64,000 nucleotides of DNA, taken from Planctomycetota bacterium (GTDB lineage Bacteria; Planctomycetota; B15-G4; SIAN01). This document shows positions 22,487 through 53,951 of the stretch, piece after piece (within the stretch, counting starts at the first letter, position 1; each line of letters starts with the position of its first letter). The notes under the pieces are model-generated. The model was not told the DNA's origin and searched no databases. It worked only from the letters and a program-made list of their open reading frames with translations. The stretch lies in contig JANNXA010000055.1 of NCBI GenBank assembly GCA_031409275.1, positions 466,024 to 530,023 of the forward strand, read 5' to 3'. Both the position numbers and the translations under genes were made by a program.

Positions 22487-22687
22487 GGGGAGTTCCTCCG
22501 AGAAATGGGGCCAGAGCGCAGCCGAGACCGCCGCGAGTGAGCGCAGCATCGTGGCGGAATCGCGGCGCGAATCAACCGCGCCGCCCCCACGCCGATCGAA
22601 CCAAGCCCGCGAGTCGCCGACTTCACCACGCGAGCGGCTCTGACCGAGATTCGGGACACCTCCCCCATCGCCTGGAAGAGATGCCCG

Positions 22688-23518
22688 ATGCGACTGCTCA
22701 CCCTCTGCACCGCTCTGATCGCACCCTTCGGCTTCGCCGCCGCGACCCCGCGGGCGGCCAACGAGCGCGCCCCGTCGGCCGGCTTCGAAGGACGGCTCGA
22801 AGCCTCGCAGAACGTCCTGGTCGGCAGCTCGGGCGAGGGGCTGCTGCACGAACTGCGCGTCGAACTCGGCGACGTGGTGGAAGCGGGTGCCGAGATCGCC
22901 TGCCTCGATCCACGCCCGCAGCAGCTTCAGGTCGAGCTGGCGGCCGCCCGTGCTTCGCGCACCGCGGGCAACCAACGCGCCCACGCGGCGGTCGCGGAAC
23001 TGGATCGTCAGCTCGCGCAACGCGCGGCGCTGTTCCAGGATGGCCTGATCGCTGGAAGCGAGAAGGAAGAGCTGCTCGCGAAGCGCCGCCAGGCCGAGAT
23101 CGACCTGCTTGAAACAGAGGAGACGCTGGCGCTCGATCGTCTGGAGCACCGCCGAGCGCTCCTCGACCTCGACGCCACGCGGATTCGCGCGCCGATCCGC
23201 GGCGTGGTGGCCGAGCGCTGCCACTTCGTCGGTGAGTACATCAGCCGCGGCGATCCCGGAATCGTGCGATTGCTGGCGCTCGATCCGCTGATCGTCGAGG
23301 TCGCCTTGCCGGTGCAGATGCTGGGTGCCGTGACCGTCGGCGATCGCGCCACGCTGTCGTTGGAGCACGCCCCCGAAACGCTGCTCGAAGCGACCGTGAA
23401 GGTCGTCGAGCGACAGGTCGACACGGCGAGTTCGACCTTCGTCGTGCGCCTCGAACTGCGAAATGAGGGCGAGCGGATTCCCGCCGGACTCCGCTGCCAG
23501 GTCCGTTTCGCGAAGTGA
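22688..23518 (+). CDS. Membrane fusion protein / RND-HlyD periplasmic adaptor
   Basis: Signal peptide, biotinyl-lipoyl halves (VELGDVVEAG; IRAPIRGVV), coiled coil, VDTASSTFVVR..PAG. Confidence 0.9.
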   Translation: MRLLTLCTALIAPFGFAAATPRAANERAPSAGFEGRLEASQNVLVGSSGEGLLHELRVELGDVVEAGAEIACLDPRPQQLQVELAAARASRTAGNQRAHAAVAELDRQLAQRAALFQDGLIAGSEKEELLAKRRQAEIDLLETEETLALDRLEHRRALLDLDATRIRAPIRGVVAERCHFVGEYISRGDPGIVRLLALDPLIVEVALPVQMLGAVTVGDRATLSLEHAPETLLEATVKVVERQVDTASSTFVVRLELRNEGERIPAGLRCQVRFAK

Positions 23519-26500
23519 CCGAACCGCAAAACGGTGGCGCGCGCGCCACCGCGGAGATCCGCATGGCGACCGATTCCTCCAGGCCCGACGCCTCCCTTGC
23601 AACTCCCAAGCGACCCGACGAACCGGCCCCGGCTCCGCTGAATGCGGTTCCAGTGCGGCCGGCCCGCTCGTTTGAAGTGGAGAGCCTCGAGAATCGCGTC
23701 CTGCTCTCGGCGACCTGGATCGACCCGTCGACGCTGGAGGAGCAGTCCGGCGCGACCGAACACGACGACGCATTCAGCGGCGACGAGGGTGCAAACGAGG
23801 CGCATGGCCTGGGCGGTGACGACCACCTGACGGGCGGAGGGGGCGACGACGCGCTGTTTGGCGACGACGGCGACGACACCCTCGACGGCGGCGCCGGCGA
23901 TGACACGCTCGATGGCGGGGAGGGCCGCGATGCGGCGGACTACTCGCATGCCGAGAAGGGAGTGACCGTCGACCTCGGCACGGACGGGGGTCAGGACACC
24001 GAAGGGGCTGGGAAGGACACGCTCGTCTCCATCGAGGACGTGATCGGGTCGAGCCACGACGACCGCCTCACCGGCAACGATGCGGACAACCTGCTGGCCG
24101 GCGGCGCTGGCGACGATCGCCTCGAGGGCGGCGCCGGAGATGACACGCTGCGCGGTGGCGCAGGGAACGACCGACTCGACGGCGGCAAGGGGCACGACAC
24201 GGTCGACTATTCCGACGCCGAGAAGGGCGTCCACGTGGACCTCACGCTCGAGAAGGAGCAGGACACCGGCGGCGGCGGCACCGATCGGCTCACCGACGTC
24301 GAAGGGGCGATCGGCAGCAACGAAGCCGACCGTTTCTCATTCAGCGGAGCGGCGGCGGACGATCACTTCACGATCGACGGCGCCGGCGGCCACGACACGC
24401 TCGATCTCCGTTCCTTTTCGAGCAAGGACGCGGAGGTTTCGACCAAGGACGGTCACGTCACCGTCTTCCTCGACGCCAAGCACCAAGAGAGCTTCACGAT
24501 CGACTTCGCGAACGTGGAGAGCCTTGAGTTCGCCGACGGCGTCGTTTCCACGATCGACGACGTCAACGTGGCGCCCACGGCGGACGCCGGCGCCGACCTG
24601 ACCGGATTCGAGGGAGCGTCCGTCACGCTTCAAGGCAGTGGCCTGGACGCGGATGGCGACGCGTTGACCTACACATGGACGCAGGTCAGCGGACCGACCG
24701 TCACCCTGAATGATCCGCACGCGGCCACGCCGACCTTCACCGTACCCGCAGGCGGAGCCGGTGCCGCGGTCGTCTTCCAACTGACGGTCAGCGATGGGAC
24801 CCACACGGCGACCGACTCGGTATCGGTCGATCTCACGAGTCCGGCGTGCGAGGCCGTCCGCGCCCTGCCCTACACGAGCTTTCGCACGCTCACGCCGGCT
24901 CAGGTCGACTACCTCACGCCAGCTCAGCTCGCCACGATCCCCAACACCGACTGGTTCGCGACCATGTCCGCCGACGCGCGCGCCTCGCTCAACGCGACGC
25001 AGGTGCAGGCGCTCAACACCGCCACCGTCTCGATTGGCTACCTCACCGCCGATCAGCGCGAGTCGCTTACCACCACCCAGATCGGGCGGCTCACCTACGG
25101 CAACTTCCGCTACCTCTCCGCCAACGGCGCCGACCACCTCACCACTACCCAGCTCGCGACGATCCCGAATACCGATTGGTTCGCGACCATGTCGGCCGAC
25201 GCGCGCGCCTCGCTCGACGCGACGCAGGTGCAGGCGCTCAACACCGCCACCATCTCGATTGGCTACCTCACCGCCAATCAGCGCGAGTCGCTGACCACAC
25301 CGCAGATCGAGCGGCTCACCTACGGCAACTTCCGCTACCTCTCCGCGAGCGGCGTCGACCACCTCACCACCACCCAGCTCGCGACGATCCCGAATACCGA
25401 TTGGTTCGCGACCATGTCGGCTGACGCGCGTGCCTCGCTCGACGCGACGCAGGTGCAGGCGCTCAACACCGCCACCATCTCGATTGGCTACCTCACCGCC
25501 AATCAGCGCGAGTCGCTCACCACACCGCAGATCGAGCGGCTCACCTACGGCAACTTCCGCTACGTGCCGGTGAGTCGGATCACGGAGCTGACAACGACCC
25601 AGCTCGGGACGATCCCAAGTGCGGACTGGTTCAACACGTTGTCGAGTGGCCAGCGCGCGGCGTTCACGGCCGATCAGCGACTCGCCCTTTCGAGTTCGAT
25701 CTCAGGCGTCGTCTTCGCTGGAGGGTCAGGAAATGACGTCCTCACCGGCAACTCGAGCGACAACGTGCTGCGCGGTGGCGACGGCAACGACACTCTTTCG
25801 GGCGGGGCCGGGAACGATCTCCTCGATGGCGGGTCGGGCGCCGACACGCTGCTCGGCGGAAGCGGCAACGACCAGCTTCGCGGCGGCGCCGGCAACGACA
25901 CGCTGATCGCTGGTGGCGGCAACGATTCGCTCGACGGCGGCAGCGGCAACGACACCTTGTCGACGAGCGGCGCCGTCGCTGGCGATCGACTGACGGTGGA
26001 GGGAGGTGACGGAGACGACCTCCTCGATCTCGGGACGATCCGTTCGGATCAGGTGACCTACGGCACCAGCCAGGTGATCGTGACGCTGCAAAACGGTGGC
26101 ACGGTCACCATCGATCACCACGGCGTCGAGCGGGTGCGCTTCAGCGATCGTGAGACGGCGCTTCCGACCGGCCCCGTCGCACCGGTCAACACGGCTCCTA
26201 TCGCAGTCGCCGGCGCGGGCACGATCAACGAAGACGGCACGGCCACGATCACGCTTCAAGGCAGTGATTCCGACAACGGCGATTCGGTCGAGGCGTTCCG
26301 CGTCACGACGCTGCCCGAACACGGCACGTTCCTGCTGAACGGCCAGCCGGTGGTGGCGGGCGGAATGATCACCGCACAAGCCATCGCGACGGGCTCACTG
26401 ACGTTCCAACCTGACGCCAACTGGAATGGCGACGCGACGATCGCGTTTCAGACGTTCGATGGTGAGGCGTGGTCGTCCAATGTCGGCACCTTCACGGTCC

Positions 26501-27714
26501 ACGTGCTCCCGGTCAACGATGGCCCGACTGCCGAAGCGGGCGCGCCGCAATCAGTCGCTGAGGGCGATCAGGTCACGCTCGCAGGACATGGCAGCGATCC
26601 CGAAGGCACCCCGCTCACCTACCAGTGGCGGCAAGTGAGCGGGCCTGCCGTGGTGCTCAGCGACGCGCGCGCCGCTGCTCCGACCTTCACCGCCCCCGAA
26701 GGGCTCGTCAACACCGCCATCGTCTTCGAGCTCTCGGTCAGCGATGGCACCACCACCTCTCTCGACAGCGTCACCGTCACGGTCGCCGCCGATGACGATG
26801 CCCCCACTGCTGAAGCGGGGGATCCGCAGCGCGCCGCTCCGGGCACGTCGGTCGTCATTCGCGGCAGCGGGGCGGACGTCGACAGTCCAGGACTCACCTA
26901 CACGTGGCGCCAACGCGATGGCGCTGCCGTCACGGTCGAGAGTCCTCACGATTCCACGCTGAGATTCGTCGCACCCACCGTGTCGCAGGATCAGGTGCTG
27001 CGGTTTGAACTCGAGGTGAGCGACGGTACTTCGAAGTCGTTCGACGAAGTGTTCGTCTACGTGCGCGCTCAGCCGACCGAGGCAACGCCGCCCGCCCCGA
27101 TGTCCGAGGGCGACGACGAACCCGTAAGTTCCGTGCAGCCGCCAGTCGCGCTCGTGCCCGAGAGTGTCGATCCGGCGATCGAGCCCGGCGACCTCGCGAT
27201 CCTCGACGCGACGCTCCCGGGCGTCGAAGCGGGGCGCATCGAGGATGCTCCGGAACTCGACGCGGCCACCGATCGAACGGGCGACGGGCCCGGTCTGAAC
27301 GCGCGAGCGCCTGCCATGTCGTTGGGCGGCTTCACCTTTGACCCTGAACGCGTCGTCGTGGAGCCTCTCGAGGTCGCGCCGGTGCTAGGCGCAACGGGCG
27401 CCCCCAGCTTCGAGACTCTCGAGGGGCGCGCACGCACGCTCGAGGAGCGCTGGACCCCGGTCGACCCGCCAGCGTCTTTGAGTCTCGATACCGCGGTCGA
27501 CCGCGGGCCCGCCGATCCGCGTACGGATCTCCCACGCCCCGGTCGCGACTCCGACGTCCCCGCGGCCGCCGACGCCCCGGGAGCCCCTCCAACGGGATGG
27601 GTAGGTTCACTAAACGCACTACTCCAGGGTGCGAAAGCGACTTGGCTGACGACGCAGGCGCCTCCAGACCAGCGCGATCTGAGCCGCCGCCGCAACGACT
27701 CATCTCGTCCTTGA
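23515..27714 (+). CDS. Large secreted adhesin: LEPR-XLL leader, RTX Ca-binding repeats, PKD/cadherin-like domains, 75-aa tandem repeats
   Basis: FEVESLENRVLLS, two clusters of GGxGxD nonapeptides, three APTAxAG..LTYxWxQ PKD-like domains and an INEDG cadherin-like domain. Alternative start is ATG 23563 (GGAG RBS). Confidence 0.88.
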   Translation: MTEPQNGGARATAEIRMATDSSRPDASLATPKRPDEPAPAPLNAVPVRPARSFEVESLENRVLLSATWIDPSTLEEQSGATEHDDAFSGDEGANEAHGLGGDDHLTGGGGDDALFGDDGDDTLDGGAGDDTLDGGEGRDAADYSHAEKGVTVDLGTDGGQDTEGAGKDTLVSIEDVIGSSHDDRLTGNDADNLLAGGAGDDRLEGGAGDDTLRGGAGNDRLDGGKGHDTVDYSDAEKGVHVDLTLEKEQDTGGGGTDRLTDVEGAIGSNEADRFSFSGAAADDHFTIDGAGGHDTLDLRSFSSKDAEVSTKDGHVTVFLDAKHQESFTIDFANVESLEFADGVVSTIDDVNVAPTADAGADLTGFEGASVTLQGSGLDADGDALTYTWTQVSGPTVTLNDPHAATPTFTVPAGGAGAAVVFQLTVSDGTHTATDSVSVDLTSPACEAVRALPYTSFRTLTPAQVDYLTPAQLATIPNTDWFATMSADARASLNATQVQALNTATVSIGYLTADQRESLTTTQIGRLTYGNFRYLSANGADHLTTTQLATIPNTDWFATMSADARASLDATQVQALNTATISIGYLTANQRESLTTPQIERLTYGNFRYLSASGVDHLTTTQLATIPNTDWFATMSADARASLDATQVQALNTATISIGYLTANQRESLTTPQIERLTYGNFRYVPVSRITELTTTQLGTIPSADWFNTLSSGQRAAFTADQRLALSSSISGVVFAGGSGNDVLTGNSSDNVLRGGDGNDTLSGGAGNDLLDGGSGADTLLGGSGNDQLRGGAGNDTLIAGGGNDSLDGGSGNDTLSTSGAVAGDRLTVEGGDGDDLLDLGTIRSDQVTYGTSQVIVTLQNGGTVTIDHHGVERVRFSDRETALPTGPVAPVNTAPIAVAGAGTINEDGTATITLQGSDSDNGDSVEAFRVTTLPEHGTFLLNGQPVVAGGMITAQAIATGSLTFQPDANWNGDATIAFQTFDGEAWSSNVGTFTVHVLPVNDGPTAEAGAPQSVAEGDQVTLAGHGSDPEGTPLTYQWRQVSGPAVVLSDARAAAPTFTAPEGLVNTAIVFELSVSDGTTTSLDSVTVTVAADDDAPTAEAGDPQRAAPGTSVVIRGSGADVDSPGLTYTWRQRDGAAVTVESPHDSTLRFVAPTVSQDQVLRFELEVSDGTSKSFDEVFVYVRAQPTEATPPAPMSEGDDEPVSSVQPPVALVPESVDPAIEPGDLAILDATLPGVEAGRIEDAPELDAATDRTGDGPGLNARAPAMSLGGFTFDPERVVVEPLEVAPVLGATGAPSFETLEGRARTLEERWTPVDPPASLSLDTAVDRGPADPRTDLPRPGRDSDVPAAADAPGAPPTGWVGSLNALLQGAKATWLTTQAPPDQRDLSRRRNDSSRP
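24868..25690 (+). repeat. Tandem 225-nt (75-aa) coding repeat, ~3.5 copies
   Basis: CAGCTCG..ACGATCCC anchor recurs at 24925, 25150, 25375 and 25600. Confidence 0.95.
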
Positions 27715-27796
27715 GTCGCGGCCGAAGAGAGCGTCACACGCACTCAGGCTCCGTTGCAGCCGATTGACGCCTGCCGGACGGACGGACGAGGTCCTC

Positions 27797-28216
27797 ATGT
27801 TCGACTCCGAATCAACGACCTCGCCCTCTGCGCTCGACCAGGAGACGCTCCGGTCCCTCGAGAAGCAGACCGCCCCCGAGATCGTCCGCGAGCGCGGCAG
27901 CGTCCGCATCGAGCACAAGCTGAAGGTGGTGGTCCGCTCGGGCAACTCGAGCGCACTGCTCGCCTTCAAGATCCAGGGCCTGACGGCTGACTTGAGTCGC
28001 GGCGGTTGCCGTCTGCTGCTCCCGCTGCCGCTCGGCGTCGGTGACATCTATCGACTCGACTTCGACGACAGCGCGCACAAGCTTCCGCAGCTCTTCGCTC
28101 GCTGCGTGCGCTGCCGCCTCCTGCGCGAGGATGCGTTCGAGGCGGGCATGCAGTTCTTCACTCCGGTCGATCTGCCCGCCTCGCTGCAGCCGCAAGGCAA
28201 GGACCTGCTCGATTGA
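27797..28216 (+). CDS. Single-domain PilZ protein (c-di-GMP receptor)
   Basis: RxxxR (RGSVR) and DxSxxG (DLSRGG), C-terminal AGMQF. Confidence 0.85.
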   Translation: MFDSESTTSPSALDQETLRSLEKQTAPEIVRERGSVRIEHKLKVVVRSGNSSALLAFKIQGLTADLSRGGCRLLLPLPLGVGDIYRLDFDDSAHKLPQLFARCVRCRLLREDAFEAGMQFFTPVDLPASLQPQGKDLLD

Positions 28217-37773: not shown

Positions 37774-38265
37774 GTGCCTCGCCCCTCGAAGCGCTCCGCC
37801 TCATCCCCTGCGGCTCCTGCCTCGAACGGCGCGCGCCACGGCCGCAGTGGCTGTTTCGGCTGCGACCCGCGCGTCGCAGGCGGCCTCGCCCTGCGCTTTC
37901 GAGCGCAAGTGGATCAGCCGGCCGGCAGCGTGGTCGCGGCTTGCCGCTTGAGCCGCCGTTTCATGGGACCGCCGGGCTACGCCCATGGCGGCGTGATCTC
38001 GGCGCTGCTCGATGAGGCGATGGCCAAAGTGACGGCGTCGCTGGGCGTCATGGCGTTCACGAGCCGCCTCGAAGTGAAGTTCCTGCGGCCGGTGCCGCTG
38101 GGAGTCGCGCTGGTCGTGCGTGGCTGGCCACGCTGGCGCCGAGGACGGGTGCTGGCGCATGCGGCGGCGATCGAGGACGCCACCGGTCGCTGCCTCGCGA
38201 CGGCGACCGCGCGCTTCGTCGAGCCGCGCGAGCCGTTGAGCAGCGCCGTCCGGACCCGCCGATGA
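37774..38265 (+). CDS. PaaI-family thioesterase
   Basis: CFGC, GPPGYAHGGVISALLDEAM, FLRPVP. Start uncertain. Confidence 0.88.
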   Translation: MPRPSKRSASSPAAPASNGARHGRSGCFGCDPRVAGGLALRFRAQVDQPAGSVVAACRLSRRFMGPPGYAHGGVISALLDEAMAKVTASLGVMAFTSRLEVKFLRPVPLGVALVVRGWPRWRRGRVLAHAAAIEDATGRCLATATARFVEPREPLSSAVRTRR

Positions 38266-42707: not shown

Positions 42708-45482
42708 TCACTCCACGTCGACGTGATAGATCTGCAGGAATCCGGTGAAGCGGCCGCCCGAAAGCGCCGTCGTACCGACCTCATGCGTCCCGTCGTCGAA
42801 GTCGTAGTTCGCCGAGCCGTTGAGCGAGAAGTAATAGAACTCCGCGTCCGACGCGTTGTCGGTGCCGGTGTCGCCGATGGCGACGATCAAGCCCGGCGGC
42901 GCCGCGCCGCCCGTGTCGCTCGACGTCGCCGCGCGGACCCAGTCCATGGCCGAGATTGTCACCGTGGAGGTGAACACCGAGGCCGTGTCGCTGAGCGTGT
43001 CGCGGAAGAAGAAGAGCAGATCCTGGTACTGGTAGTCCGCGAGGTTCGAGGTCGAACGCGTCCACGCCCAAGTCATGCCCAGCGACACCGGGCTACCCGT
43101 CAGCGATTCGACGTTCTGCGCGACACCGGGGCTCTCGGCCGTGATCTGGATCGCAGCGGTCGGGAAGTTGGCGTCGAAGACCCAGATGTGCTGCGACGCG
43201 GGCGTCACGCCGTTGATCGCCGCGGAGAAGACGCAGAGCGACGGATAGAGCCCGCCCGCGTACGAGAGGTGCCAGCTGAAGTTGTCGTTGACGCCGGACG
43301 GGTTCGAGGTGTCCGACGTCGTGCCGCCGGCGAATTCGTTCCCCGTGACGTTGAACGCCTTCAAGGTCACCGTGTCGACGCCGACCAGGTTGGTCTTCGT
43401 ACTGGCCGCGGTCAGTGCGCGCGCGAAGTAGTAGTAGCGGCCGTTGGGCGACAGGAAGAAGCCTTCCGGAAGGATCGTTCCGGCCGTGGTGTACGGAGCC
43501 ACGAGCGTCGGGCGAGTGATGTTGCTGAGCAGCCCCGTCGACGGCCGGAAATGGAACAGGTCCATCGTCCGATCGGTCGCCGAAGTGTCCAACCCGTAGA
43601 AGAAGTAGAGGTTGTCGGCGTCGTGGAAGTAGAGGTCGATGGCGTCGTCGAGCGTGTTGCTCAGGCTTGCGCTGGCCATGCGCGAATTGATGGTGATCTG
43701 GCCGTCGACGAAGAGCGTGTCGCCCGCGTCGTCACCTTCCCCGTTGCCGTCCGCATCGGCGGTGCTGCAGACGTAGACCTCGTCGTCCTCGCCTCCGGTC
43801 GTTCCGTTCTCTTCGCTGTGGATCGAGACGAACGCGAGCTTGGAGCCGTCGGGAGTGAGCGACGCCTGGCCCGTCGCGCCGTTGTAAGCCTCGCCGGGCA
43901 CGACCATCTTCGGGGCGGTACCGGTCAGCACCGGATAGAGCCGGAACTTCGTGAGGTTCACGGCGACGGTTGGAGCCGACTCGTAGACGGCGTACCAATC
44001 GCCCTTCTGGACGTGATCGGGGACCTGGCCCGAGACGGCCACGAAGCTGTCGCCTGCGAGGAAAACGACCAACGCGGCGTCTTCGCTCGGTCGCAGGAAG
44101 GAGCGATCGGCAACGATGTCGACCTTCGCCGCGGCCGTGGTCGTGGCATATCCGGTATTGACCGGGATCGAGATGAGTTGCGGCGTCGGATTCACCGCAC
44201 GAATGTCGACGCTGAAGACCGTCTGGTCGAAGCGTCCGTCAGAGTCACCGTCCACCGCGACGTCGCGCGTGAACCAGAGGCGGTTGTCCGTGAAGATCGC
44301 CGCGCGCAGCGACGACGCAGATGCCGCCGCCTGGCTGAAGTTCTTGGTTCCCGAAGGCGTGACGTCGAGGAATCCGGTGGGACCGCCGCCCGAATTCCAG
44401 GGCTGGCTGCCATCCGTCGTGAAGATGAAGAGCTTCGGATCGCTGGCGGTGTCGTCGTAGATGCCGGCCGCCACGATGCCATCGGGGCTGACGAGGATCG
44501 AGCCCTTCCACTGGTTTGTCGTGGCGGCGGAGAGGTCCTTCTTGCGACTGCCGGTAACGGCGAAGACGTCGACGCCCGGGGTGTTGGGGTTGGCACCCTT
44601 GTTGATGACGAGGAAGAACCCTTCGCCCGTGACGTTGTCGAAGCAGCGCAGCAGCTCGCGCTGCGGAACGCCGCCCGACGCCGCTGGCAGCAGAATGCGC
44701 GGATACTCGTTGTTGTCGTTGTTCAGCGCGGGGCCGAACGTGGCATCACGGAAGTCGACCTCGCGCGGCTTGTCAGCGGCAGTTCCCGACTGATGCGTGG
44801 CCCACTCGTTGATGTCGGCCATCGAGATGCCGTCAGGAATGATGTTCGAGAGGCCGGACACCGCGGTGAACGTCGCACCGTTCGGATTGCCGCCGCTGAA
44901 CTGGAGAACGCCGAACTGAACCGCGTTCACACCGACGGCGCTCTGCGACACGACCGCGCGCGCGGCGGCACCCGGCGCAACGAAGTTCACCTCGACCGCG
45001 TTCGTGAAGTCGGTCGAGGTTCCCGACGACTCGAGCGCCACGGCCTGCAGGTAGATCGTTCCGGTCAGCGCCGATGGAATCCGGAAGTTGAGCGTCACGT
45101 TGCCGGAAACATCGAGGCGAAGGCGCGGATTGGGGCTGCGATCGGGCGAGATGTCGAGCGGCGGATAGTCCGCCTCGACGATGCTGGTCGCGACGCCCGT
45201 CACCAACGGGAACGGCTTCTTGTTGGTGCCGCTGTTCTCGTCGAGGAACCAGCCGGTCCCCGCCGCGTTGTTCGCGGTCGCCGCGAACAGCCCATACGGG
45301 CGTCCGGCCAGCGACGGATTCGAGATCGTCACCGACATCGTCGTGCCGCTCGGCACGTCGAGCGTCGACGAGTTGTCACTCGCCGTCGTCCCGTTGATGG
45401 TGAGTGTCGAATTCTGGGCGACCGCTGCTCCAGGCAGCGCCACGCAGGCGAAGGCGGCGGCGACCGCGCACAGGGGCTTCAA
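42708..45482 (-). CDS. Large secreted Ser/Thr/Asp-rich surface protein (~925 aa) with beta-propeller-like repeats
   Basis: TTG start after AAGGAG, signal peptide (..GAAVA-Q), SPDG/TPDG/SPNG blades, DxDxDG loops. Confidence 0.8.
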   Translation of the reverse strand: MKPLCAVAAAFACVALPGAAVAQNSTLTINGTTASDNSSTLDVPSGTTMSVTISNPSLAGRPYGLFAATANNAAGTGWFLDENSGTNKKPFPLVTGVATSIVEADYPPLDISPDRSPNPRLRLDVSGNVTLNFRIPSALTGTIYLQAVALESSGTSTDFTNAVEVNFVAPGAAARAVVSQSAVGVNAVQFGVLQFSGGNPNGATFTAVSGLSNIIPDGISMADINEWATHQSGTAADKPREVDFRDATFGPALNNDNNEYPRILLPAASGGVPQRELLRCFDNVTGEGFFLVINKGANPNTPGVDVFAVTGSRKKDLSAATTNQWKGSILVSPDGIVAAGIYDDTASDPKLFIFTTDGSQPWNSGGGPTGFLDVTPSGTKNFSQAAASASSLRAAIFTDNRLWFTRDVAVDGDSDGRFDQTVFSVDIRAVNPTPQLISIPVNTGYATTTAAAKVDIVADRSFLRPSEDAALVVFLAGDSFVAVSGQVPDHVQKGDWYAVYESAPTVAVNLTKFRLYPVLTGTAPKMVVPGEAYNGATGQASLTPDGSKLAFVSIHSEENGTTGGEDDEVYVCSTADADGNGEGDDAGDTLFVDGQITINSRMASASLSNTLDDAIDLYFHDADNLYFFYGLDTSATDRTMDLFHFRPSTGLLSNITRPTLVAPYTTAGTILPEGFFLSPNGRYYYFARALTAASTKTNLVGVDTVTLKAFNVTGNEFAGGTTSDTSNPSGVNDNFSWHLSYAGGLYPSLCVFSAAINGVTPASQHIWVFDANFPTAAIQITAESPGVAQNVESLTGSPVSLGMTWAWTRSTSNLADYQYQDLLFFFRDTLSDTASVFTSTVTISAMDWVRAATSSDTGGAAPPGLIVAIGDTGTDNASDAEFYYFSLNGSANYDFDDGTHEVGTTALSGGRFTGFLQIYHVDVE

Positions 45483-45563
45483 GATGCTCTCCTTTGCTCG
45501 CTCGGACTGCTTCGAGGACCGAAGCACGGGTTCGTGTTCAGCGCTGAACGGGAAAACCGCGGG

Positions 45564-45572
45564 AGGATAGCA
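45564..45572 (-). promoter_or_regulatory. Extended -10 promoter (TGcTATCCT)
   Basis: About 80 nt upstream of the TTG start. Confidence 0.45.
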
Positions 45573-45696
45573 ACCGCTCCCACCGGAGGTCACGGGGGAG
45601 CCGCGCCATCGCGGCCGCAAATCGGCCGAGTTGACCGGGCGTCGACGGCGTCACTGCAAGCGCTGCGCCAGCCCGCCGCCCTGCCCGTCCCGGGGC

Positions 45697-46548
45697 TCAC
45701 CGCCCCTCCACCATCGGCGCGCCCCACTTCAGGCGCTCGCGGATCGTGCGGAAGCGCGTGCGCGTGACGACCGTCGCGGCGCGCAAATCGGCGGCGGCCT
45801 CGACGACTTCGACGACGCTGCCCTCGTCGAGCGCCACCGTCTCCTGGCCGTCGATGGTCAGCGCCGTCCCGTGACGAGCGCGGTGGACCAGCAGCTCGAT
45901 GCGCCTGCTGCTGCGCAGCACCAGGGGTCGGTAGGTCAGCGCCTGCGAGTTGACCGGCGTCACCAGCAGGCAGCGGTCGGTGCGGTCGATGATCGGTCCG
46001 CCCGCCGCCATCGAGTGGGCGGTCGAGCCGACCGGCGTCGCCAAGATCATCCCGTCGCCGCGGAAGCGGGTGATGTCCTCGTCGTCGATCCGCAGCGTGA
46101 ACTCGACGAGGCGCGCGACCGTCGCTGCGGTCACCACCACCTCGTTCAGTGCCGGCGCGAACTCGCGCACGCGCCCGCGCGGCCCACGCACCCGCACCTG
46201 CAAGCGCATCCAGTTCTCGACCGCCCCTTGCCCCTCGACTAGTCGGGTGAGTCCTTCGTCCCAGTCCCCTGGCTCGAGTTCCGCCAGGTAGCCGAAGGTG
46301 CCGAGGCGAACGCCGACCAGCGGTACCTCCGCGCGGCCGATCGCGCGCGCGGCACGCAAGAAGGTCCCGTCGCCACCGAGCACGATGGCGAGGTCGGACG
46401 GCGCAACCTTGCGCACGCCGCGTTGCAGATCGACGCGCTTGACCGCGATCGATCGCCCCGCGAGCCACTTGGCGATACGCGCCGCCTCGGCGCGCGCGCG
46501 TGGATCGCGTCCATCAACCAGCAGCAGTGCCGAAGAAGGCAGTTTCAC
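45697..46548 (-). CDS. nadK: NAD+ kinase
   Basis: LGGDGTFL, GTFGYL, ALNE, GDGMILATPVGSTAHSMAAGGP. Confidence 0.94.
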   Translation of the reverse strand: MKLPSSALLLVDGRDPRARAEAARIAKWLAGRSIAVKRVDLQRGVRKVAPSDLAIVLGGDGTFLRAARAIGRAEVPLVGVRLGTFGYLAELEPGDWDEGLTRLVEGQGAVENWMRLQVRVRGPRGRVREFAPALNEVVVTAATVARLVEFTLRIDDEDITRFRGDGMILATPVGSTAHSMAAGGPIIDRTDRCLLVTPVNSQALTYRPLVLRSSRRIELLVHRARHGTALTIDGQETVALDEGSVVEVVEAAADLRAATVVTRTRFRTIRERLKWGAPMVEGR

Positions 46549-48469
46549 GGGTGAATCCGAGGATGGCGTCGCGCACGCCGGTCGCGTTCAGCCCGAGTTC
46601 GGCGAGCAACTCGGCGCGCGCGCCGTGCTCGATGAATCGATCGGGGATCCCGAGGCAGCGAACGCGGGCGTGCACTCCGTCTTGCCGTGCGGCCAGCTCG
46701 AGGAGCGCCGAACCGAATCCGCCATGCAGCGCCGCCTCCTCGAGCGTGACCACGAGGCGATGGTCGGCAAGGAGCCGTCCGTAGAGCGTCTCGTCAAGCG
46801 GACGCGCGAAGCGCGCGTTGACCACCGTGCAGCGGTGTCCTGCGGCTTCCAGCAGTTGCGCGGCTTCGAGCGCCGTCTCGCTCATCGCGCCGTAGCCGAC
46901 CAGCGCGATCTCTTCTCCCTCGCGGAGCACTTCGGCCGTGCCGAGCTCGATCGGCGCCACGGCGCGGCCCGGCGGCAGAGTGGTCGCTTTGGGGTAGCGC
47001 ACCGCGATCGGGCCGTCGTGGCGCAGCGCGAACCGGATCATCGCCTCGAACTCGCCACCATCGCGCGGAGCGAGCATCACGATGCCCGGGATCGCGCGCA
47101 TGAAGGCGATGTCGAAGAGCCCGTGGTGAGTCTGGCCGTCGTCGCCGGCAAGCCCGCCGTGCGACATCATCAGGACCACCGGGTTGCGCTGGAGCGCGAC
47201 CTCGTGGAAGACCTGATCGAAGCCACGCTGCATGAACGTCGAGTAGATCGCGCACACCGGCCGGCGCCCGCCGAGCGTCAGCCCGGAAGCGAACGCGACG
47301 CCATGTTGTTCGGCGATGCCGACGTTGAAGAAGCGCTCGGGAAAGCGCTCCGAGAAGGTGCGCAGCCCGGTTCCATCGGGCATCCCGGCCGTGATGGCGC
47401 AGATGCGCGGATCGAGGGCCGCCTCGGCCAGCAACGTGTCGGTGAAGACGCGCGAGAACTCGACCTTCGCCCCGCTTCCAGCCTTCTTCGCCACCGCCGC
47501 CGTCGGCATGTCGACCTTGTCGATCTTGCAGGCGGAGTCGCATTCGAGCGTGAACGAATCACCCGGCTTGGCGCCGTGCAGCGCGAGCGGATCTTCTTCG
47601 CACCCCTTCACGCCCTTGCCCTTCACCGTCAGGACGTGCAGCAGCTTGACGCCGGGCTGTTCGTGCATCGCCTGCAGCACCTCGACCATCCCGTCGAGGT
47701 CGTGGCCGTCGTAGACGCCGAAGTAGCGAAAGCCCAGCGCGTCGAGGATCTTGCCCGGCGCGATCACATGACGCAGATGGTCGGCGAGCTCGTGCACCGA
47801 CTTCTCGACCCCTTTGCCGATGCCGGGAATGCGGGCGACGAGCTCCTCGAGTTTCTCCACTGCGTGCTTGGCGCCGCTGTAGAGCTTCGACAGGCGCACT
47901 TTCGACAGCACGCGCGAAAGCGCGCCGACCGTGCGCCCGATCGACTGTTCGTTGTCGTTCAGGATGATCAGCAGGTCGCGATCGAGATGGCCGGCGCTGT
48001 TCAACGCCTCGAGCGACATCCCCGACACGATGCTCGCATCGCCGACCACCGCCACCGACTTGCGCTTCTCTCCCGCCAGCGCGTCGCCAAGACACGCGCC
48101 AAGCGCCATCGAGATGGCGGTTCCGGCGTGGCCTGAAGTCATCAGGTCGTACGGCGACTCATCCTTGTTCGGGAAGCCCGATAGGCCGCCCTTCTGGCGC
48201 AAGGTCTGGAAGCGGTCGAAGCGTCCGGTCAGGAGCTTGTGCGGGTAGCACTGATGGCCGGTGTCGAGGAACAGTCGATCGCGCGGGAAGTCGTAGACGC
48301 GATGGAGCGCGACGGTCAGCTCGACGACCCCCATCGACGAGCCGAGGTGGCCGCCGTTCTTGGTGACCGTCTCCAGGATCTTGCGCCGGATTTCGTTGCA
48401 GAGCTCCGGCAGCTGCCCGACCGGCAGTTGCTTCACGTCGCTCGAGTGGCGGAGCTGTTCGAGGATCAT
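46514..48469 (-). CDS. dxs: 1-deoxy-D-xylulose-5-phosphate synthase
   Basis: GGHLGSSMG, DTGHQCYPHK, GHAGT, GDAS..LNDN, GIAEQH, IYSTF, DGQTH. Confidence 0.96.
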   Translation of the reverse strand: MILEQLRHSSDVKQLPVGQLPELCNEIRRKILETVTKNGGHLGSSMGVVELTVALHRVYDFPRDRLFLDTGHQCYPHKLLTGRFDRFQTLRQKGGLSGFPNKDESPYDLMTSGHAGTAISMALGACLGDALAGEKRKSVAVVGDASIVSGMSLEALNSAGHLDRDLLIILNDNEQSIGRTVGALSRVLSKVRLSKLYSGAKHAVEKLEELVARIPGIGKGVEKSVHELADHLRHVIAPGKILDALGFRYFGVYDGHDLDGMVEVLQAMHEQPGVKLLHVLTVKGKGVKGCEEDPLALHGAKPGDSFTLECDSACKIDKVDMPTAAVAKKAGSGAKVEFSRVFTDTLLAEAALDPRICAITAGMPDGTGLRTFSERFPERFFNVGIAEQHGVAFASGLTLGGRRPVCAIYSTFMQRGFDQVFHEVALQRNPVVLMMSHGGLAGDDGQTHHGLFDIAFMRAIPGIVMLAPRDGGEFEAMIRFALRHDGPIAVRYPKATTLPPGRAVAPIELGTAEVLREGEEIALVGYGAMSETALEAAQLLEAAGHRCTVVNARFARPLDETLYGRLLADHRLVVTLEEAALHGGFGSALLELAARQDGVHARVRCLGIPDRFIEHGARAELLAELGLNATGVRDAILGFTRETAFFGTAAG

Positions 48470-48478
48470 CGAAGGGTC

Positions 48479-49393
48479 CTACGCGAGGCGTTCCTGCAAA
48501 CCCTGCGCGAGCTGAGCTAGCTCGGCCGGTCGCGGAAACGCCCTCGATTCCTGGCGCGCGCGTGCCGTGAGTTCGGCAGCGCGCGCGCGGGCCGTCGCCT
48601 CGCCGACCGCGGCAGGATAGGTGAGCTTCCCCCGCGCGTCATCCTTGCCGACTGGCTTGCCGGTGCGCTTGGGATCGCCGCACTTGCCGAGCAGATCATC
48701 CACGACCTGGAACGCAAGCCCGAGCGACTCCCCGTAGCGAGCGGCCGCGGCAACGAGGTCCGGCCCGGCGCCGGCGCAGCGCGCCCCCAGCGTCGCCGCC
48801 GCACGAAACATCGCCGCGGTCTTGCGCAGGTGGATCCAGCGCACCCGCTCCTCCGTCGGCAGCTGCCCCTCGCCAAGCAGGTCGCCCGCCTGGCCGTTCA
48901 CCATGCCGGCGACACCCGCCGCGGCCGCCAGTTCACGAACGGCATCGGCGACGATCGCGGGATCGGTGCCGAGTGCCAGCACCTCGAACGCGCGAGTGAG
49001 CAGCGCATCGCCGGCCAGGATCGCGATGGCATCGCCATAGACCTTGTGGCAAGTCGGCCGGCCGCGCCGGAAGTCGTCGTCATCCATCGCCGGCAGGTCG
49101 TCGTGGACGAGCGAATAGCAGTGGATCAGCTCGAGCGCCGCTCCCGCCGCCAGCGCCGCCTCGGCCCGGCCACCGCACGCCTCGGCCACCAGCAACGTCA
49201 CCACCGGACGCAGCCGCTTGCCGCCGCCCAGCACGGCGTACTCGCAGGCTGCCTTCAGTTGCGGGACCAACTCCTCATCGGCTGGCAGCAACCACTGCCG
49301 CAGCGCCATCTCGATCTGCTCGCGCAACGCGACGACGCGGCGTTCGAGCGCCTGCGTCGCCGCGGAAGTGGTTCCGGCTGCTGCTGGTTCCAT
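48479..49393 (-). CDS. ispA: Polyprenyl (geranyl/farnesyl) diphosphate synthase
   Basis: GGKRLRP, SLVHDDLPAMDDDDFRRG, GLAFQVVDD, GKPVGKD. Confidence 0.93.
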   Translation of the reverse strand: MEPAAAGTTSAATQALERRVVALREQIEMALRQWLLPADEELVPQLKAACEYAVLGGGKRLRPVVTLLVAEACGGRAEAALAAGAALELIHCYSLVHDDLPAMDDDDFRRGRPTCHKVYGDAIAILAGDALLTRAFEVLALGTDPAIVADAVRELAAAAGVAGMVNGQAGDLLGEGQLPTEERVRWIHLRKTAAMFRAAATLGARCAGAGPDLVAAAARYGESLGLAFQVVDDLLGKCGDPKRTGKPVGKDDARGKLTYPAAVGEATARARAAELTARARQESRAFPRPAELAQLAQGLQERLA

Positions 49394-49402
49394 CCGCGCC
49401 GC

Positions 49403-51097
49403 TCAGCGCGCGACCTCGGTCACCTTCCGTTCACGGATGAGGGTGACCTTGATCTCGCCCGGATACGTGAGCTCGTCCTCGATCTTCTTGGCGATGCTGC
49501 GCGCGGTGAGCAGCGCCATGTTGTCGTCCATCTTGTCGGCATCGACCATGACGCGCAGTTCGCGGCCAGCCTGAACGGCGTAGGCGGAGGAGACGCCGTC
49601 GAACGACGTCGCGGTCGCTTCGAGCTTCTCGAGGCGCTCGATGTACTGCTCGACGGAGTCGCGGCGTGCGCCTGGACGTCCGGCCGAGATCGCGTCGCCC
49701 ACCTGGGTGAGCACCGCGTAGGTCGTCTCGTACGGCATGTCCTCGTGGTGCGCGCCGATGGCGTTCCAGATCAAGCGCGGCTCGTCGAAGCGGCGGGCCT
49801 GGTCCGCGCCGAGAACGGCATGGCTGCCGTCGAGCTCGTGCGTCAGCGCCTTGCCGATGTCGTGCAGCAGCCCGCATCGCTTGCCGATCAACGGGTCGAG
49901 CTTCAGCTCGGCGCAGATCGAACTCATGATGTGCGCGATCTCGATCGAGTGCTCGAGGACGTTCTGGCCGTAGGACGTGCGGTACTTGAGGCGCCCGACC
50001 AGGAACTGCACCTGCGGGTGGACCTTCTGCAGTCCGAGGTCGGCGCACGCCTTCTTGCCGGTCTGGCGGATGTCCTCGTCGATCCCCTTCTTCTCCGCTT
50101 CGATCAGCTCTTCGATGCGTGCCGGATGGATGCGGCCGTCGCCGATCAGCTTCTCGAGCGCGCGCCGCGCCGTCTCGCGGCGGACGGCGTCGAAGCAGGA
50201 GATCACGATCACGCCCGGCGTGTCGTCGACGATGACGTCGACGCCGGTCGCCTTCTCGATCGCGCGGATGTTGCGGCCTTCGCGGCCGATGATCTTGCCC
50301 TTCATGTCGTCGCTGGGCAGATCGATGACCGAGGTCACCGTGTCGGAGACGTAGCGCACGGCGCAACGCTGGATCGCGGTGCCGACGATGCGCTGCGCGA
50401 TCTCCTCGGCGCGATCCTTCTTCTCCTCCTCCTTCTTGACGAGGTAGGCGGCAAGGTCGCTCTGACACGCCTCCTCGAACTTCTTCATGACGATGTCGCG
50501 CGCCTCGGGCGCGGAGAGCTGCGCGATCTGCAGGAGCTTGCTCTCCTCCTCGGCGAGCTTCGCCTTGAGCTGCTCGTCCTTCTCCTTCACTGCGACGTTC
50601 TGCTGCTCGAGCTTGGCGCGCTCCTGATCGATCTCCTTCTCGCGCACTTCGATCTTCTGCTTCTCGGCCTGCGTCTCCGCTTCACGGCGCGCGAGCTTGC
50701 GCTCGGCATCGAGGACCTTCTCGTGGTGCGCCTTCGCCTCGGCGGCGAGATCCGCTTCAGCGCGCTGGCGCCGCTCGCGCAATTCGGCTTCGGTGCGATT
50801 GCGCGACGCCTGAGCCGACTGCTCGATCTGCTGGCGCGACTGCTCCGCTTGCTGACGCGCCTGCTCGGCCTGCTGCCGCACCTGCTCCGATTGCTGGCGC
50901 ACGCGCTCCGCCTGCGCATCGGCGTCGGCGCGCACGCGGCGCGCCTCGGCCTGCGCCTTCTCGAGCTCTTGTTTGCTCGCCGGCACGTGCACGATCTGCG
51001 GCGGCGGTGGAGCCGCGGTCCCCGCCTTCTTGCGACCGAGGATGTAGGCAACGACGGCGGCGACCACGGCGCCGAGTCCGATGAGGATCTTGTCCAA
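49403..51097 (-). CDS. rny: Ribonuclease Y
   Basis: TTG start after AGGAGG, N-terminal TM, coiled coil, KH (KGKIIGREGRNIR), HD (YRTSYGQN..H; LLHDIGK), SAGRPGAR. Confidence 0.96.
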   Translation of the reverse strand: MDKILIGLGAVVAAVVAYILGRKKAGTAAPPPPQIVHVPASKQELEKAQAEARRVRADADAQAERVRQQSEQVRQQAEQARQQAEQSRQQIEQSAQASRNRTEAELRERRQRAEADLAAEAKAHHEKVLDAERKLARREAETQAEKQKIEVREKEIDQERAKLEQQNVAVKEKDEQLKAKLAEEESKLLQIAQLSAPEARDIVMKKFEEACQSDLAAYLVKKEEEKKDRAEEIAQRIVGTAIQRCAVRYVSDTVTSVIDLPSDDMKGKIIGREGRNIRAIEKATGVDVIVDDTPGVIVISCFDAVRRETARRALEKLIGDGRIHPARIEELIEAEKKGIDEDIRQTGKKACADLGLQKVHPQVQFLVGRLKYRTSYGQNVLEHSIEIAHIMSSICAELKLDPLIGKRCGLLHDIGKALTHELDGSHAVLGADQARRFDEPRLIWNAIGAHHEDMPYETTYAVLTQVGDAISAGRPGARRDSVEQYIERLEKLEATATSFDGVSSAYAVQAGRELRVMVDADKMDDNMALLTARSIAKKIEDELTYPGEIKVTLIRERKVTEVAR

Positions 51098-51099
51098 CG

Positions 51100-51350
51100 C
51101 TTCCCTCCTGACGCGGCGCGCGCGGCCGGATGCCGCCTTCGAAGCGCGCTCGCAGCGAGGGTGCAGCGCGCACCCACGCATGGCCCGCCACGACGCGCTC
51201 CAGGAGTCACCCCGTCCAGGCTTCACGGCCCGTTCGAGTGGAATGGACCTCGAACGACGACTCGCCCGTCACCCATGGCGACCGGCGAGTTCATGACTCT
51301 TGGCGAATCGTTGCGCCCCACTCACGCTGCTGACGCTGAGAGAGAGGCGC
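51100..51350 (-). ncRNA. Candidate structured 5' leader RNA of rny
   Basis: Several strong hairpins forming a multibranch junction closed by CCAAGAGUCAU/GUGACUCCUGG. Confidence 0.5.
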
Positions 51351-51354
51351 CGCA

Positions 51355-51383
51355 ACGATAGGCCCGAAAGGTACTTGGGCCAA
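51355..51383 (-). promoter_or_regulatory. sigma70-type promoter for the rny-ispA-dxs-nadK operon
   Basis: TTGGCC-N17-TATCGT. Confidence 0.55.
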
Positions 51384-51400
51384 GTGGCCAGACGTCGGAG

Positions 51401-52609
51401 TTAGGAGCCGGTCGAGCGGCGGACCGCGGGAACTCCCTGCCAGTGTTCCGGCGTCAGGTCGCGCAGCGCCACCCGCAAGCGACCTCGAAAGAGCGGCCGT
51501 TTCTGGCCGCCCTCGACCATTTCGCCGCCTTCGCAGCAAAGCTCGCCGTAGCGGTGCGTCGGATCGACTTCGAACCACGCGAGGTCTGCGAGCACCGTCT
51601 GGGTCGGCGCCCCGGTCGAATCGAACGCCAGATCGATGACCGCCTTCGACAAGGCTCCATCCACGAGCTCGCCGGAGGAGCGCAGGCGCATCACCAGCGA
51701 CTTCTCGAGGGCCAACGCGCGGTTGACCAGCGCGACGGCCGAGTCGCCGTCCGTGATCATCGCCGTCGCCCGAGGGTCGTCGAGTTGGAAGAGCTCGCGC
51801 AGGAGCGGCGGGACCAGCTCGACGGGCAGGACCCCCGGAATCTCCAGTCGGTAGCACGAGCCCTCATAGGCCACATCGACGCCGCCTTCGACGCCGTGAG
51901 CGCCCTGCGCGTCGAGCGCCGCAATCCCGGTGATCGGGTCGCGCTCGAGGCGGAGCGTCTTCGCGATCAGCGATCCGATGCCGGTGCCGCGCACCCCTCG
52001 CTGCGCGAGGACCACGTCCGCGAGGCAGTGGTTCGCTGCGTCGGGCCGCGCGGCCATCAGATGCCACCCGTCGAGCCCCGCATCGGCCAGCAGCTGGTTG
52101 AAGGCCGTCGTGGTCGCCGCGGCCGCTTCCTGCTCGAGGCGCTCCCGCTCCGCCTCGCGATCCACGACCGCTGCCGCATTCACCTCGGTCGACGTCGGGA
52201 CGTCGTCGGTGACCACGAGCGGCGCCGGAGCCGCCTCCCCCGCTCCAATCGCGGCGCTGATGCGATCGGCTCGTTCGATGGCGCGCGCCATCGTGGACTG
52301 ATCGACGCCCGTGCGACGGCGCGACGCGGCGCTGGTCGCGTCGACCGGCTTGCCGGCGAGCGACTCCGACGGCGAGGAGGTGACGGACGACACGCCGCTT
52401 TCGTCGGCGGGGTCGCGAGCCTGCGGACGTTCGAGTTCGGCCAGCCGTTCGAGCACCGCGGTCATCACGCGCCGCGACTCGCTCTCTTCGGCGACCCGGC
52501 GCCACCGAGCGTCGAGCGTCAGGTAGACCGCAGCGCCACCGACGAGGAGGCCGCCCACGAACGGGACGACCCAGCGCTGCTTGTCACTTCCCGCCGGTGC
52601 CGTCGCCAT
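51401..52609 (-). CDS. Single-TM protein with two beta-rich periplasmic repeats
   Basis: N-terminal TM (VVPFVGGLLVGGAAVYL), disordered linker, beta-rich C-terminus. Confidence 0.65.
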   Translation of the reverse strand: MATAPAGSDKQRWVVPFVGGLLVGGAAVYLTLDARWRRVAEESESRRVMTAVLERLAELERPQARDPADESGVSSVTSSPSESLAGKPVDATSAASRRRTGVDQSTMARAIERADRISAAIGAGEAAPAPLVVTDDVPTSTEVNAAAVVDREAERERLEQEAAAATTTAFNQLLADAGLDGWHLMAARPDAANHCLADVVLAQRGVRGTGIGSLIAKTLRLERDPITGIAALDAQGAHGVEGGVDVAYEGSCYRLEIPGVLPVELVPPLLRELFQLDDPRATAMITDGDSAVALVNRALALEKSLVMRLRSSGELVDGALSKAVIDLAFDSTGAPTQTVLADLAWFEVDPTHRYGELCCEGGEMVEGGQKRPLFRGRLRVALRDLTPEHWQGVPAVRRSTGS

Positions 52610-53951
52610 CGTCGCGCTTCTCCCCTGCCGTCGACTCGGCGCCAAGCGGTCCTCGATCCGTGGACGAAGGGCCGAGCAGCTGCTCGAACCCGGCACGCGA
52701 CGGCTGCGATCGGAACTCGTCCCAACGCACGGCACCCACTTGCGCGGAGGCGAGCGGAAGCGTCTCGGCGCCGTTCTTCAGCGCCAGCCGTGTGACCGTG
52801 GCGAAGTCGAGCTCGCCGGGCAGCACCAGCAGCAATCGCACCAGCTGGCCGCTCTTCAGCGGCGCAACTCCTGCGGCGCCAAGCTGCGCCCCGAGCACGC
52901 CCGCCTCGGCCGCGCTGCCGACGCCACGCAGCACCTCAGACGGCGCCAACGAGCGGAAACTTCCCGCGCCCGCCTCGCCCTCGACCGTGATCCCGTCCTT
53001 CGCCACCGTGAAAGCGGCCGGTTCGCCGAATCGAAACAACGTGAGCGCGAGGCAGCGGCGCGGCGCCACCGAACCGGTCTCGCGTTGCACCTGCTCCTGC
53101 AACCGCCGGTCGCGCGCCATGGCCGCGTGGTAGGGCGCCACCACGGCGAGCGTCTGCTCGTCGCACCAGCGCCAGAAGAGCGGAAGCGAGCCTTCGGTGC
53201 GCGACTCCGCTTGTTCCCCGCGCGTCGTGTAACGATCGCGTGGCTCGGCGCAACCTTGGGTGGCAAGCGCGGTCGTCACCGCCAGCAGCAGCACTCCGAC
53301 GCCGCTGGTCGGTCCCATCGGACGGTCGCCGCGGCGCTCCCCCAGCTCGTCGCGCGGGCGCTGGACGTCGTCGAGTCGCAAGACCTTGGTCTCGCTCCCC
53401 GGAAGAGGATCGTGGGCTGGCTCGGGCAGGATGTCGCCGCCCACGGGATGGAGCGTGTGCGCTTCGACCTTCTGCTGACGCCGCGTGCAGAGCCAGAAGG
53501 TCAGCGGGTAGCTGATGACCGCAAGGATCACGGCCACCGGCAGCGAGCCGAGGAAGAGCGGGAAGCCGACGTCGCTCGCGAGGTGGAGCACGCGATCCCA
53601 GTAGCTCGGGAACTTCGCCGAGACCGCTTCCCAATGGCGCCAGAAGTCATCGCGGCTGCCGATCGCCTGAGCGTCGAGCATCCAGGCGCCCACGCGGTAC
53701 TCGAAGTAGTAGACCGGCGGCACCGTCACCGGGTTGGTGAGCCAGGCCATCGCCACTGCGAGCGGCTGGCTCACTCCGAACAAGGTGGCCAGTCCGAAGC
53801 TGATCGGCATCTGCACGCCGACGATCGGCAGGAACGCGATGAAAACCCCGAGCGCGACGCCGCCCGCCTTCGAGCGGGGCGTGTCCTGGACGAACAGGAT
53901 CGGGCGGATCAGCCGCTCATAGACCAGTCGCTTGAGGCGTTGCCAGACCAA
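52584..53951 (-). CDS. DUF2062 domain membrane protein with C-terminal extension
   Basis: DTPRSKAGGVALGVFIAFLP, WLTNPVTVPPVYY..Y.VG, PLFLGS. Confidence 0.8.
   Translation of the reverse strand: MVWQRLKRLVYERLIRPILFVQDTPRSKAGGVALGVFIAFLPIVGVQMPISFGLATLFGVSQPLAVAMAWLTNPVTVPPVYYFEYRVGAWMLDAQAIGSRDDFWRHWEAVSAKFPSYWDRVLHLASDVGFPLFLGSLPVAVILAVISYPLTFWLCTRRQQKVEAHTLHPVGGDILPEPAHDPLPGSETKVLRLDDVQRPRDELGERRGDRPMGPTSGVGVLLLAVTTALATQGCAEPRDRYTTRGEQAESRTEGSLPLFWRWCDEQTLAVVAPYHAAMARDRRLQEQVQRETGSVAPRRCLALTLFRFGEPAAFTVAKDGITVEGEAGAGSFRSLAPSEVLRGVGSAAEAGVLGAQLGAAGVAPLKSGQLVRLLLVLPGELDFATVTRLALKNGAETLPLASAQVGAVRWDEFRSQPSRAGFEQLLGPSSTDRGPLGAESTAGEKRDDGDGTGGK

Follow-up and report, generated by a model that had tools for sequence, protein, structure and literature searches.

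A probable structured 5' leader outside Rfam ahead of the rny-ispA-dxs-nadK operon of uncultured Planctomycetota

The window analyzed here, a 64,000-nucleotide stretch of DNA (G000:C55:466024-530023), belongs to an uncultured planctomycete whose genome is labeled G000 in the comparisons below and whose family and genus are designated f1 and g1; g2 denotes a second genus, and f2, f4 and f5 other families of the same order. These hosts are known from metagenomes only, and the seven closest rny loci all come from metagenome-assembled genomes, six of them from Planctomycetota and one from an uncultured Phycisphaerales. On the minus strand of the window, rny (49403..51097) encodes a 564-aa RNase Y with RNase_Y_N, KH and HD domains (TIGR03319, 581.7 bits against a cut-off of 454), and is followed by an ispA-like farnesyl diphosphate synthase gene (48479..49393; NF045485, 283 bits, cut-off 275), dxs (46514..48469; TIGR00204, 671 bits) and a NAD kinase-like gene, here nadK-like (45697..46548), which matches NAD kinase models with E-values down to 2e-50, all under their cut-offs. 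The four genes are separated by gaps of ~10 nt or overlap. Downstream of nadK, the predicted product of 42708-45620 (minus strand) is 970 aa long, begins with a signal-like N-terminus and matches no NCBIfam model.

The gene order is well kept among related genomes, with ispA downstream of rny in all 19 related loci, dxs missing in one of these, and nadK missing in two, both of which stop at a contig end. Because the operon is conserved to this degree, its context cannot single out rny, as opposed to ispA, dxs or nadK, as the controlled gene. A ymdB gene lies between rny and ispA in all five f5 and f2 loci scanned (L114, L115, L117, L118 and L120), and a search of five family-f1 genomes (G000, G001 and G004-G006) found it in none; ymdB adjoins rny in B. 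subtilis as well. Upstream of rny, a gene of ~420 aa on the same strand (51401..52663) has no match among NCBIfam and Pfam profiles, and its relatives sit before rny in G001-G004.

The end of this upstream gene lies 18 nt ahead of the -35 box of a predicted sigma-70-type promoter (51355..51383, minus strand), in which TTGGCC (51383-51378) and TATCGT (51360-51355) are separated by a 17-nt spacer, as the initial annotation had placed them. The promoter recurs, its spacing unchanged, in G000, G001-G005 and G007 as well as in 7/7 metagenome matches, always upstream of rny, which amounts to nine distinct leaders of the family; it was not recognized in G006. Its identity to G004, the closest relative, is 83%, versus 69% at fourfold-degenerate sites (6457/9369), and the loose pattern TTG...TA...T stands before 10 of 60 tRNA, tmRNA and 6S genes of G000 versus 0.08% of random windows. 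A generic promoter scan of 50500-52500 returned no sites; it overlooks this promoter because only 8/12 consensus bases are matched. No terminator was detected in the same interval, including between the upstream gene and the leader. The -35 box also sits in a palindrome, CTTGG-N-CCAA (51375-51384, minus strand), which is kept in most family promoters, has a core with 12 occurrences in the genome and could be a regulator site.

From the position of the promoter, transcription would start near 51350 (about 51350-51349), giving a leader of ~252 nt, 69% G+C, that runs to a Shine-Dalgarno sequence, AGGAGG (51104..51109, minus strand), 6 nt ahead of a TTG start codon with an equivalent start place in relatives. 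The stretch is thus very likely the ~252-nt 5' leader of the rny-ispA-dxs-nadK operon. Across the family, promoter-to-start lengths range from 172 to 387 nt, start codon counted. Four sequencing runs, out of 12 listed, were examined and none covers the leader; one metatranscriptome contig is an exact match to 51640-51862. A BLAST search of the genome gave no second copy of the leader among the matches listed, the best other match having E=0.002.

Comparison with Rfam assigned the leader to no known family, at the cut-off or beyond chance at E<=10. In the window at cut-off, Rfam reports nothing except four tRNAs; a tRNA-Ala called by ARAGORN at 52806-52899 (minus strand), inside a DUF2062 gene, is absent from the Rfam results and is probably a false call. 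At E<=10, the leader region yields six chance matches (E 0.9-9.5), none of them to 6S RNA, and 20 related loci yield none at E<=0.5. 6S RNA is known from a site before rny, and the leader resembles it in having its own housekeeping-type promoter and a similar size. The genome's 6S RNA (RF00013) nevertheless lies elsewhere, at C51:192112-192300 (59.3 bits versus a gathering cut-off of 46.4), and among the 31 of 42 genomes with a 6S match none carries it on the rny-bearing contig. A 6S RNA is moreover a rod with a central bubble and paired ends, and the consensus fold here is branched: a hairpin, a four-way junction and more hairpins. Nor does the leader belong to rne5, the family of the E. coli rne 5' UTR, since Rfam reports no match and the gene is rny.

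Every motif described in the initial annotation sits where it was placed, and the fold proposed there, a 5' hairpin followed by a multibranch domain, can be stated more fully with the help of relatives. The predicted 5'-terminal hairpin, H1 (51313..51350, minus strand, as are all elements below), begins at the inferred start, with arms at 51350-51346 and 51317-51313. It is followed by a long-range helix, P1, whose 5' strand (51293..51311) extends the previously proposed 51303-51293 by 8 nt and whose 3' strand (51190..51210) includes the earlier 51210-51200; P1 closes a predicted four-way junction around P2 (51260..51290, pairing probability 0.93-1.0), P3 (51230..51257, probability 0.93, its stem previously given as 51256-51231 and its loop not conserved) and a newly added four-pair hairpin, P4 (51212..51228). 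P5 (51159..51175, five pairs), likewise added, comes after the junction. Relatives support H1, P1 in its extended form (51311-51190), P2 and P3; in the host itself, P1 lies outside the predicted optimum of the full leader. The pseudoknot proposed between the P3 loop GUCCA (51248-51244) and UGGAC (51218-51214) did not survive comparison: only 2 of its 5 pairs are retained in G004, the sole alignable relative, and P4, a hairpin with a double change, shares bases with the 3' strand of the pseudoknot. Some 5-nt complement of the loop is also found in 45% of shuffled leaders, and this candidate was rejected.

As a single sequence the region folds with z = -1.68, 13 of 200 shuffles folding equally well, and the 255-nt leader with z = -2.14; across the seven leaders listed, z ranges from -0.2 to -2.1. 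On the G000 sequence alone, the predicted fold is thus only modestly beyond chance. The pairing probability of P1 in G000 is 0.84 for a 165-nt RNA versus 0.03 for the full leader, and 0.99 in G004. With 30 coding bases appended to the G000 leader, the fold containing both H1 and P1 lies 5.5 kcal/mol (ensemble 5.8) above the predicted optimum, in which a 9-nt CU-rich insertion inside H1, specific to G000 and lacking in relatives, pairs with the ribosome-binding site. These folding models suggest that the junction may form during transcription and be partly eroded in G000. In several leaders the ribosome-binding site is predicted to be paired, with partners that differ from leader to leader. As a separate observation, the -10/discriminator segment (51351-51359) is complementary to the end of H1 (51307-51315) in both G000 and G004, so that RNA reading through from the upstream gene would fold a longer hairpin.

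Comparison with G004 provides the first line of evidence for conserved structure. The two genomes align over 160 nt of the leader without gaps, at 70% identity versus a synonymous rate of 69%, whereas most other spacers of this pair are gapped. Their joint fold is the four-way junction described above, P1 (51311-51190) enclosing P2, P3 and P4, with P5 after it, and comprises 43 pairs: 33 the same, 6 with one-sided changes, 4 with double changes and none broken. P1 accounts for two double changes, and P4 and P5 for one each (U-A to C-G in both cases); P2 is kept with three one-sided changes and no double change, and P3 keeps seven pairs with one one-sided change. Identity is 72/86 at paired and 40/74 at unpaired positions. 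When substitutions were relocated at random in two null models, an equally stable joint fold arose in 2/300 and 1/300 trials, although the count of double changes was not above the null (160/300 and 178/300). The structure-conservation z is -2.71 for the leader and -1.65 for the opposite strand, and among control windows of the same genome pair, two of the 40 spacer-like ones and none of the eight coding ones scored below -2.71 (three coding windows had no alignment). Selection on the shape of the leader is likely, but the case is not overwhelming.

A broader comparison was made with six same-genus leaders (G000, G004, G001, L098, G003 and G002), which are related and not independent; their whole alignment misaligns the variable interior and was used for the 5' part only. 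In H1, 90.8% of alignment cells are paired and 4 of 11 pairs are changed on both sides, and its covariation of 0.436 was reached in 0/500 shuffles, with slid controls 34-47% paired, the structure having been derived from the same alignment. Per-sequence shuffle tests of H1 are weaker (18, 38, 3, 9, 46 and 7 of 200 in the six leaders). The 18-nt stretch just after H1 pairs with a distant partner better than expected from shuffles, the counts being 17 (G000), 77 (G004), 8 (G001), 5 (L098), 0 (G003) and 1 (G002) of 300 trials. The P1 anchor had been picked after folds were viewed, and for that reason was slid over 23 offsets; its mean z of -2.48 over the six leaders was the lowest, with only an overlapping neighbor near it. 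A P1 partner is present in 6/6 of these leaders, with partners chosen by energy and a register that can slip at bulges; of 11 helix positions, 6 show double changes and 3 are invariant. The interior enclosed by P1 varies from 121 to 256 nt, and the 3' end of P1 reaches the ribosome-binding site in G001 and L098. In G002, though not in G000 or G003, a different partner for the P1 5' strand beside the ribosome-binding site was spotted by eye; this candidate was dropped.

Three nearly identical leaders from genus g2 fail both the H1 and the long-range P1 tests, and in them the P1 5' strand folds as a local hairpin. These same leaders (L017, L018 and L092) carry at position 200 a 42-codon ORF with a ribosome-binding site, for which the near identity of the three sequences leaves no coding evidence. 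No conserved leader peptide is common to genus g1, and a 23-codon ORF of G000 is missing in G004.

A survey of the order covered 20 of 23 other rny loci; G011, G030, G008, G018 and G026 were left out, no promoter having been located. Among 16 long leaders, 8 have a predicted optimum that combines a 5' hairpin with a long-range helix starting from positions 28-52, versus 72 of 620 shuffles, the G006 leader having been trimmed to start at its hairpin; G000, which falls short on the hairpin, is outside these eight. The long-range helix begins at position 29-37 in G020, G014, G036, G028 and G006, with a similar GAUUC motif in four. When four family-f5 leaders were folded jointly with RNAalifold, the 5' hairpin was recovered and the long-range helix was not, although single-sequence folds place the latter in G020, G014 and G023. 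Two family-f2 genomes, G024 and G021, have leaders of 43 nt before the same operon, and a 398-nt leader persists in G017, in which the 5 kb downstream of rny hold no dxs. The family-f5 leaders are 375-398 nt long (L021:1008-1382, L022:394-770, L023:381-778 and L024:379-763), with z of -1.5 to -5.7 versus shuffles; they share the motif GAAUAGAU downstream of the 5' hairpin, and in some of them strong helices cover the ribosome-binding site. A motif model may be better built from these leaders.

The complement of RNA-decay enzymes in this lineage bears on how such a leader might act. RNase Y was found in 8/8 genomes of family f1 and RNase E/G in 0/8; outside f1, RNase E/G is present in 33 of the order's 34 genomes. 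Family f4 shows the complementary loss, with RNase E/G in 16/16 genomes and RNase Y not found, and both enzymes occur in f2 and f5. No RNase J was found, with TIGR00649 matching 0/42 genomes of the order and PF17770 giving no match in the host genome; at 58-95% completeness of these genomes, "not found" leaves absence of RNase E/G and J unproven. RNase III is present. A 461-aa beta-CASP metallo-beta-lactamase protein (G000:C49, L107:337-1722) could supply nuclease activity in place of RNase J.

The results support a structured cis-acting leader, real and uncatalogued, ahead of a conserved operon, as the initial annotation had proposed; its suggested analogy with RNase genes that control their own expression is also the best reading of the data, one we hold tentatively and with slightly less than even confidence. 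By this analogy the leader would act as a feedback device of the rne kind, setting the lifetime of the messenger in response to RNase Y itself. H1 would shield the 5' end of the messenger; the branched domain closed by P1 would form during transcription, presenting helices and short unpaired joints; these could recruit or guide RNase Y; and cleavage in the leader or the early coding region would follow, such that more enzyme would mean less rny messenger. As RNase J was not found, the cut messenger would have to be degraded as for rne, by additional endonucleolytic cleavage and 3' decay, in place of the RNase J1 route of B. subtilis. As in known autoregulatory leaders, the messenger of the nuclease itself carries a long 5' UTR (with a predicted start and a promoter kept in nine leaders), and structure is kept despite sequence drift in genus g1 and not in g2, in a set of few and related sequences.

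Two known systems frame this proposal. A preprint on the E. coli rne leader (PMC13692253) reports that its shape is kept at ~70% divergence, that most of the feedback comes from hp3, a four-way-junction hairpin to which RNase E binds, and that sequence conservation is highest in its functional parts. Like that 5' UTR, with its hp1, hp2 and branched hp3, the present leader is a long leader of the main decay-starting endonuclease and consists of a 5' hairpin followed by a four-way-junction domain; unlike it, it belongs to an unrelated enzyme and sequence, has no equivalent of hp2 between hairpin and junction and no sequence-conserved branch, and its feedback is putative. We infer that it works like the rne leader without being a member of that family. 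For B. subtilis, PMC10303841 describes an RNase Y that cleaves its own messenger in the 164-nt leader and the early coding region, with RNase J1 entering at the cuts, the main cut region being 76% A+U with one stem-loop. The leader described here is likewise a long leader (~252 nt) of the same gene, but is branched and 69% G+C, and the RNase J that would act at cut ends in a B. subtilis-type scheme was not found in the 42 genomes. In S. aureus, RNase Y is guided by a downstream helix and cleaves 6 nt ahead of it independently of sequence (PMC5449607). Nuclease recruitment with feedback is preferred here because an rne-like layout is found on rny where the RNase J route seems closed. Against it stand the position of the H1 and P1 fold above the optimum in G000, the weak single-sequence z, the lack of signal in g2, the 43-nt f2 leaders, the high G+C content and the absence of a conserved branch. 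The literature searched shows no published structured rny leader from Planctomycetota.

The reading that comes next, unlikely on the whole yet of real weight, is a structured leader that gives the messenger a fixed stability and translation rate, with a protective 5' hairpin and helices that keep a G+C-rich leader off the ribosome-binding site, and no feedback by RNase Y. It fits all the structure data equally well, including a shape that is kept while sequence is free and the length of the interior ranges between roughly 120 and 260 nt, and 5' structures are known as messenger stabilizers (PMC3997798). H1, which starts at the predicted first nucleotide, resembles the stabilizing stem-loops of ompA, papA and aprE described there; such stem-loops explain H1 only, however, and not the domain closed by P1, and fixed stability leaves unexplained the recurrence of a long branched domain before rny in three families. 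The energy needed to open the ribosome-binding site of rny is also ordinary, being exceeded in 23% of 150 control genes whose start codons were called roughly.

Processing by RNase III is the mechanism of the pnp and rnc leaders. Were P1 an RNase III processing stem, cutting would strip the protected 5' end and alter the stability of the operon, a scenario we consider improbable. The enzyme is encoded in the genome, P1 forms 14-17 pairs in an 18-nt window with invariant pairs near its base, and pnp and rnc are among the genes named in PMC3997798; yet P1 has a 2-nt bulge and mismatches, falls outside the predicted optimum and is replaced by a local hairpin in genus g2.

A somewhat poorer account still is that of an unconstrained G+C-rich spacer whose helices arise by chance. 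Leader identity equal to the synonymous rate, the weak single-sequence z, the few and related homologues and the energy-chosen P1 partners would all suit it, but it is hard to reconcile with the relocated-substitution null (2/300), with 160 gap-free nucleotides where other spacers are gapped, and with an H1 signal absent from 500 shuffles and a P1 signal specific to its position.

The initial annotation had also raised a riboswitch, and a metabolite sensor for NAD(P) or isoprenoid precursors, possibly with a pseudoknot, might seem natural in an operon that carries ispA, dxs and nadK and where two alternative G000 folds lie within ~6 kcal/mol of each other, in one of which the ribosome-binding site is paired with the 5' end. 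We consider it very improbable. The leader has drifted at the synonymous rate, unpaired positions are the least conserved, unlike an aptamer core, and there are no conserved loop or junction bases, no Rfam match and no terminator; the pseudoknot is broken in G004, and the run that pairs with the ribosome-binding site is the G000-specific insertion. A P1-P4 covariance model built from two training sequences matched in 4 of 41 genomes, and only the training sequences themselves were at rny. The other two matches (29.5 and 25.7 bits) fall over long ORFs away from rny and were taken as chance. With filters off, the model gave no clear match to other rny leaders, missing those of the same genus, and the long G017 leader persists without dxs nearby. 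Hardly more credible is the divergent non-coding RNA also suggested at first, a second 6S-like or other RNA released from the leader, for which the leader's own promoter and the self-contained domain closed by P1 would speak, and against which stand a 6S RNA above cut-off on C51, the location of 6S off the rny contig in all rny-bearing relatives, a branched and not rod-like fold, the lack of a terminator, and a fold that continues to the ribosome-binding site, where P1 ends in G001 and L098.

If RNase Y feedback does operate through this leader, genes for isoprenoid and NADP synthesis would be tied to RNA-decay capacity, and a layout recurring in three families of the order would be old. A more ambitious version, that RNase Y, in a lineage lacking both RNase E and RNase J, independently reached the rne solution of a hairpin, a nuclease-binding domain conserved in shape only and a feedback loop, we regard as doubtful. 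These leaders bear on the question of how RNase Y chooses its targets, self-control having been described for B. subtilis, where it relies on RNase J1, and shape-conserved leaders of 170-390 nt would be natural test substrates for structure-guided recognition by RNase Y. If there is no feedback, what is left is an uncatalogued leader motif of modest interest.

The comparison with G004 also brought out two features elsewhere in the window. Some 10 kb (22134-32307) are almost without counterpart in the otherwise collinear G004 contig and are likely an insertion or island. In the structure-conservation test against G004, the spacer that separates a glycosyltransferase gene from one for a CitMHS transporter (37700-37859, plus strand) reached z = -3.9, a stronger score than that of the rny leader.
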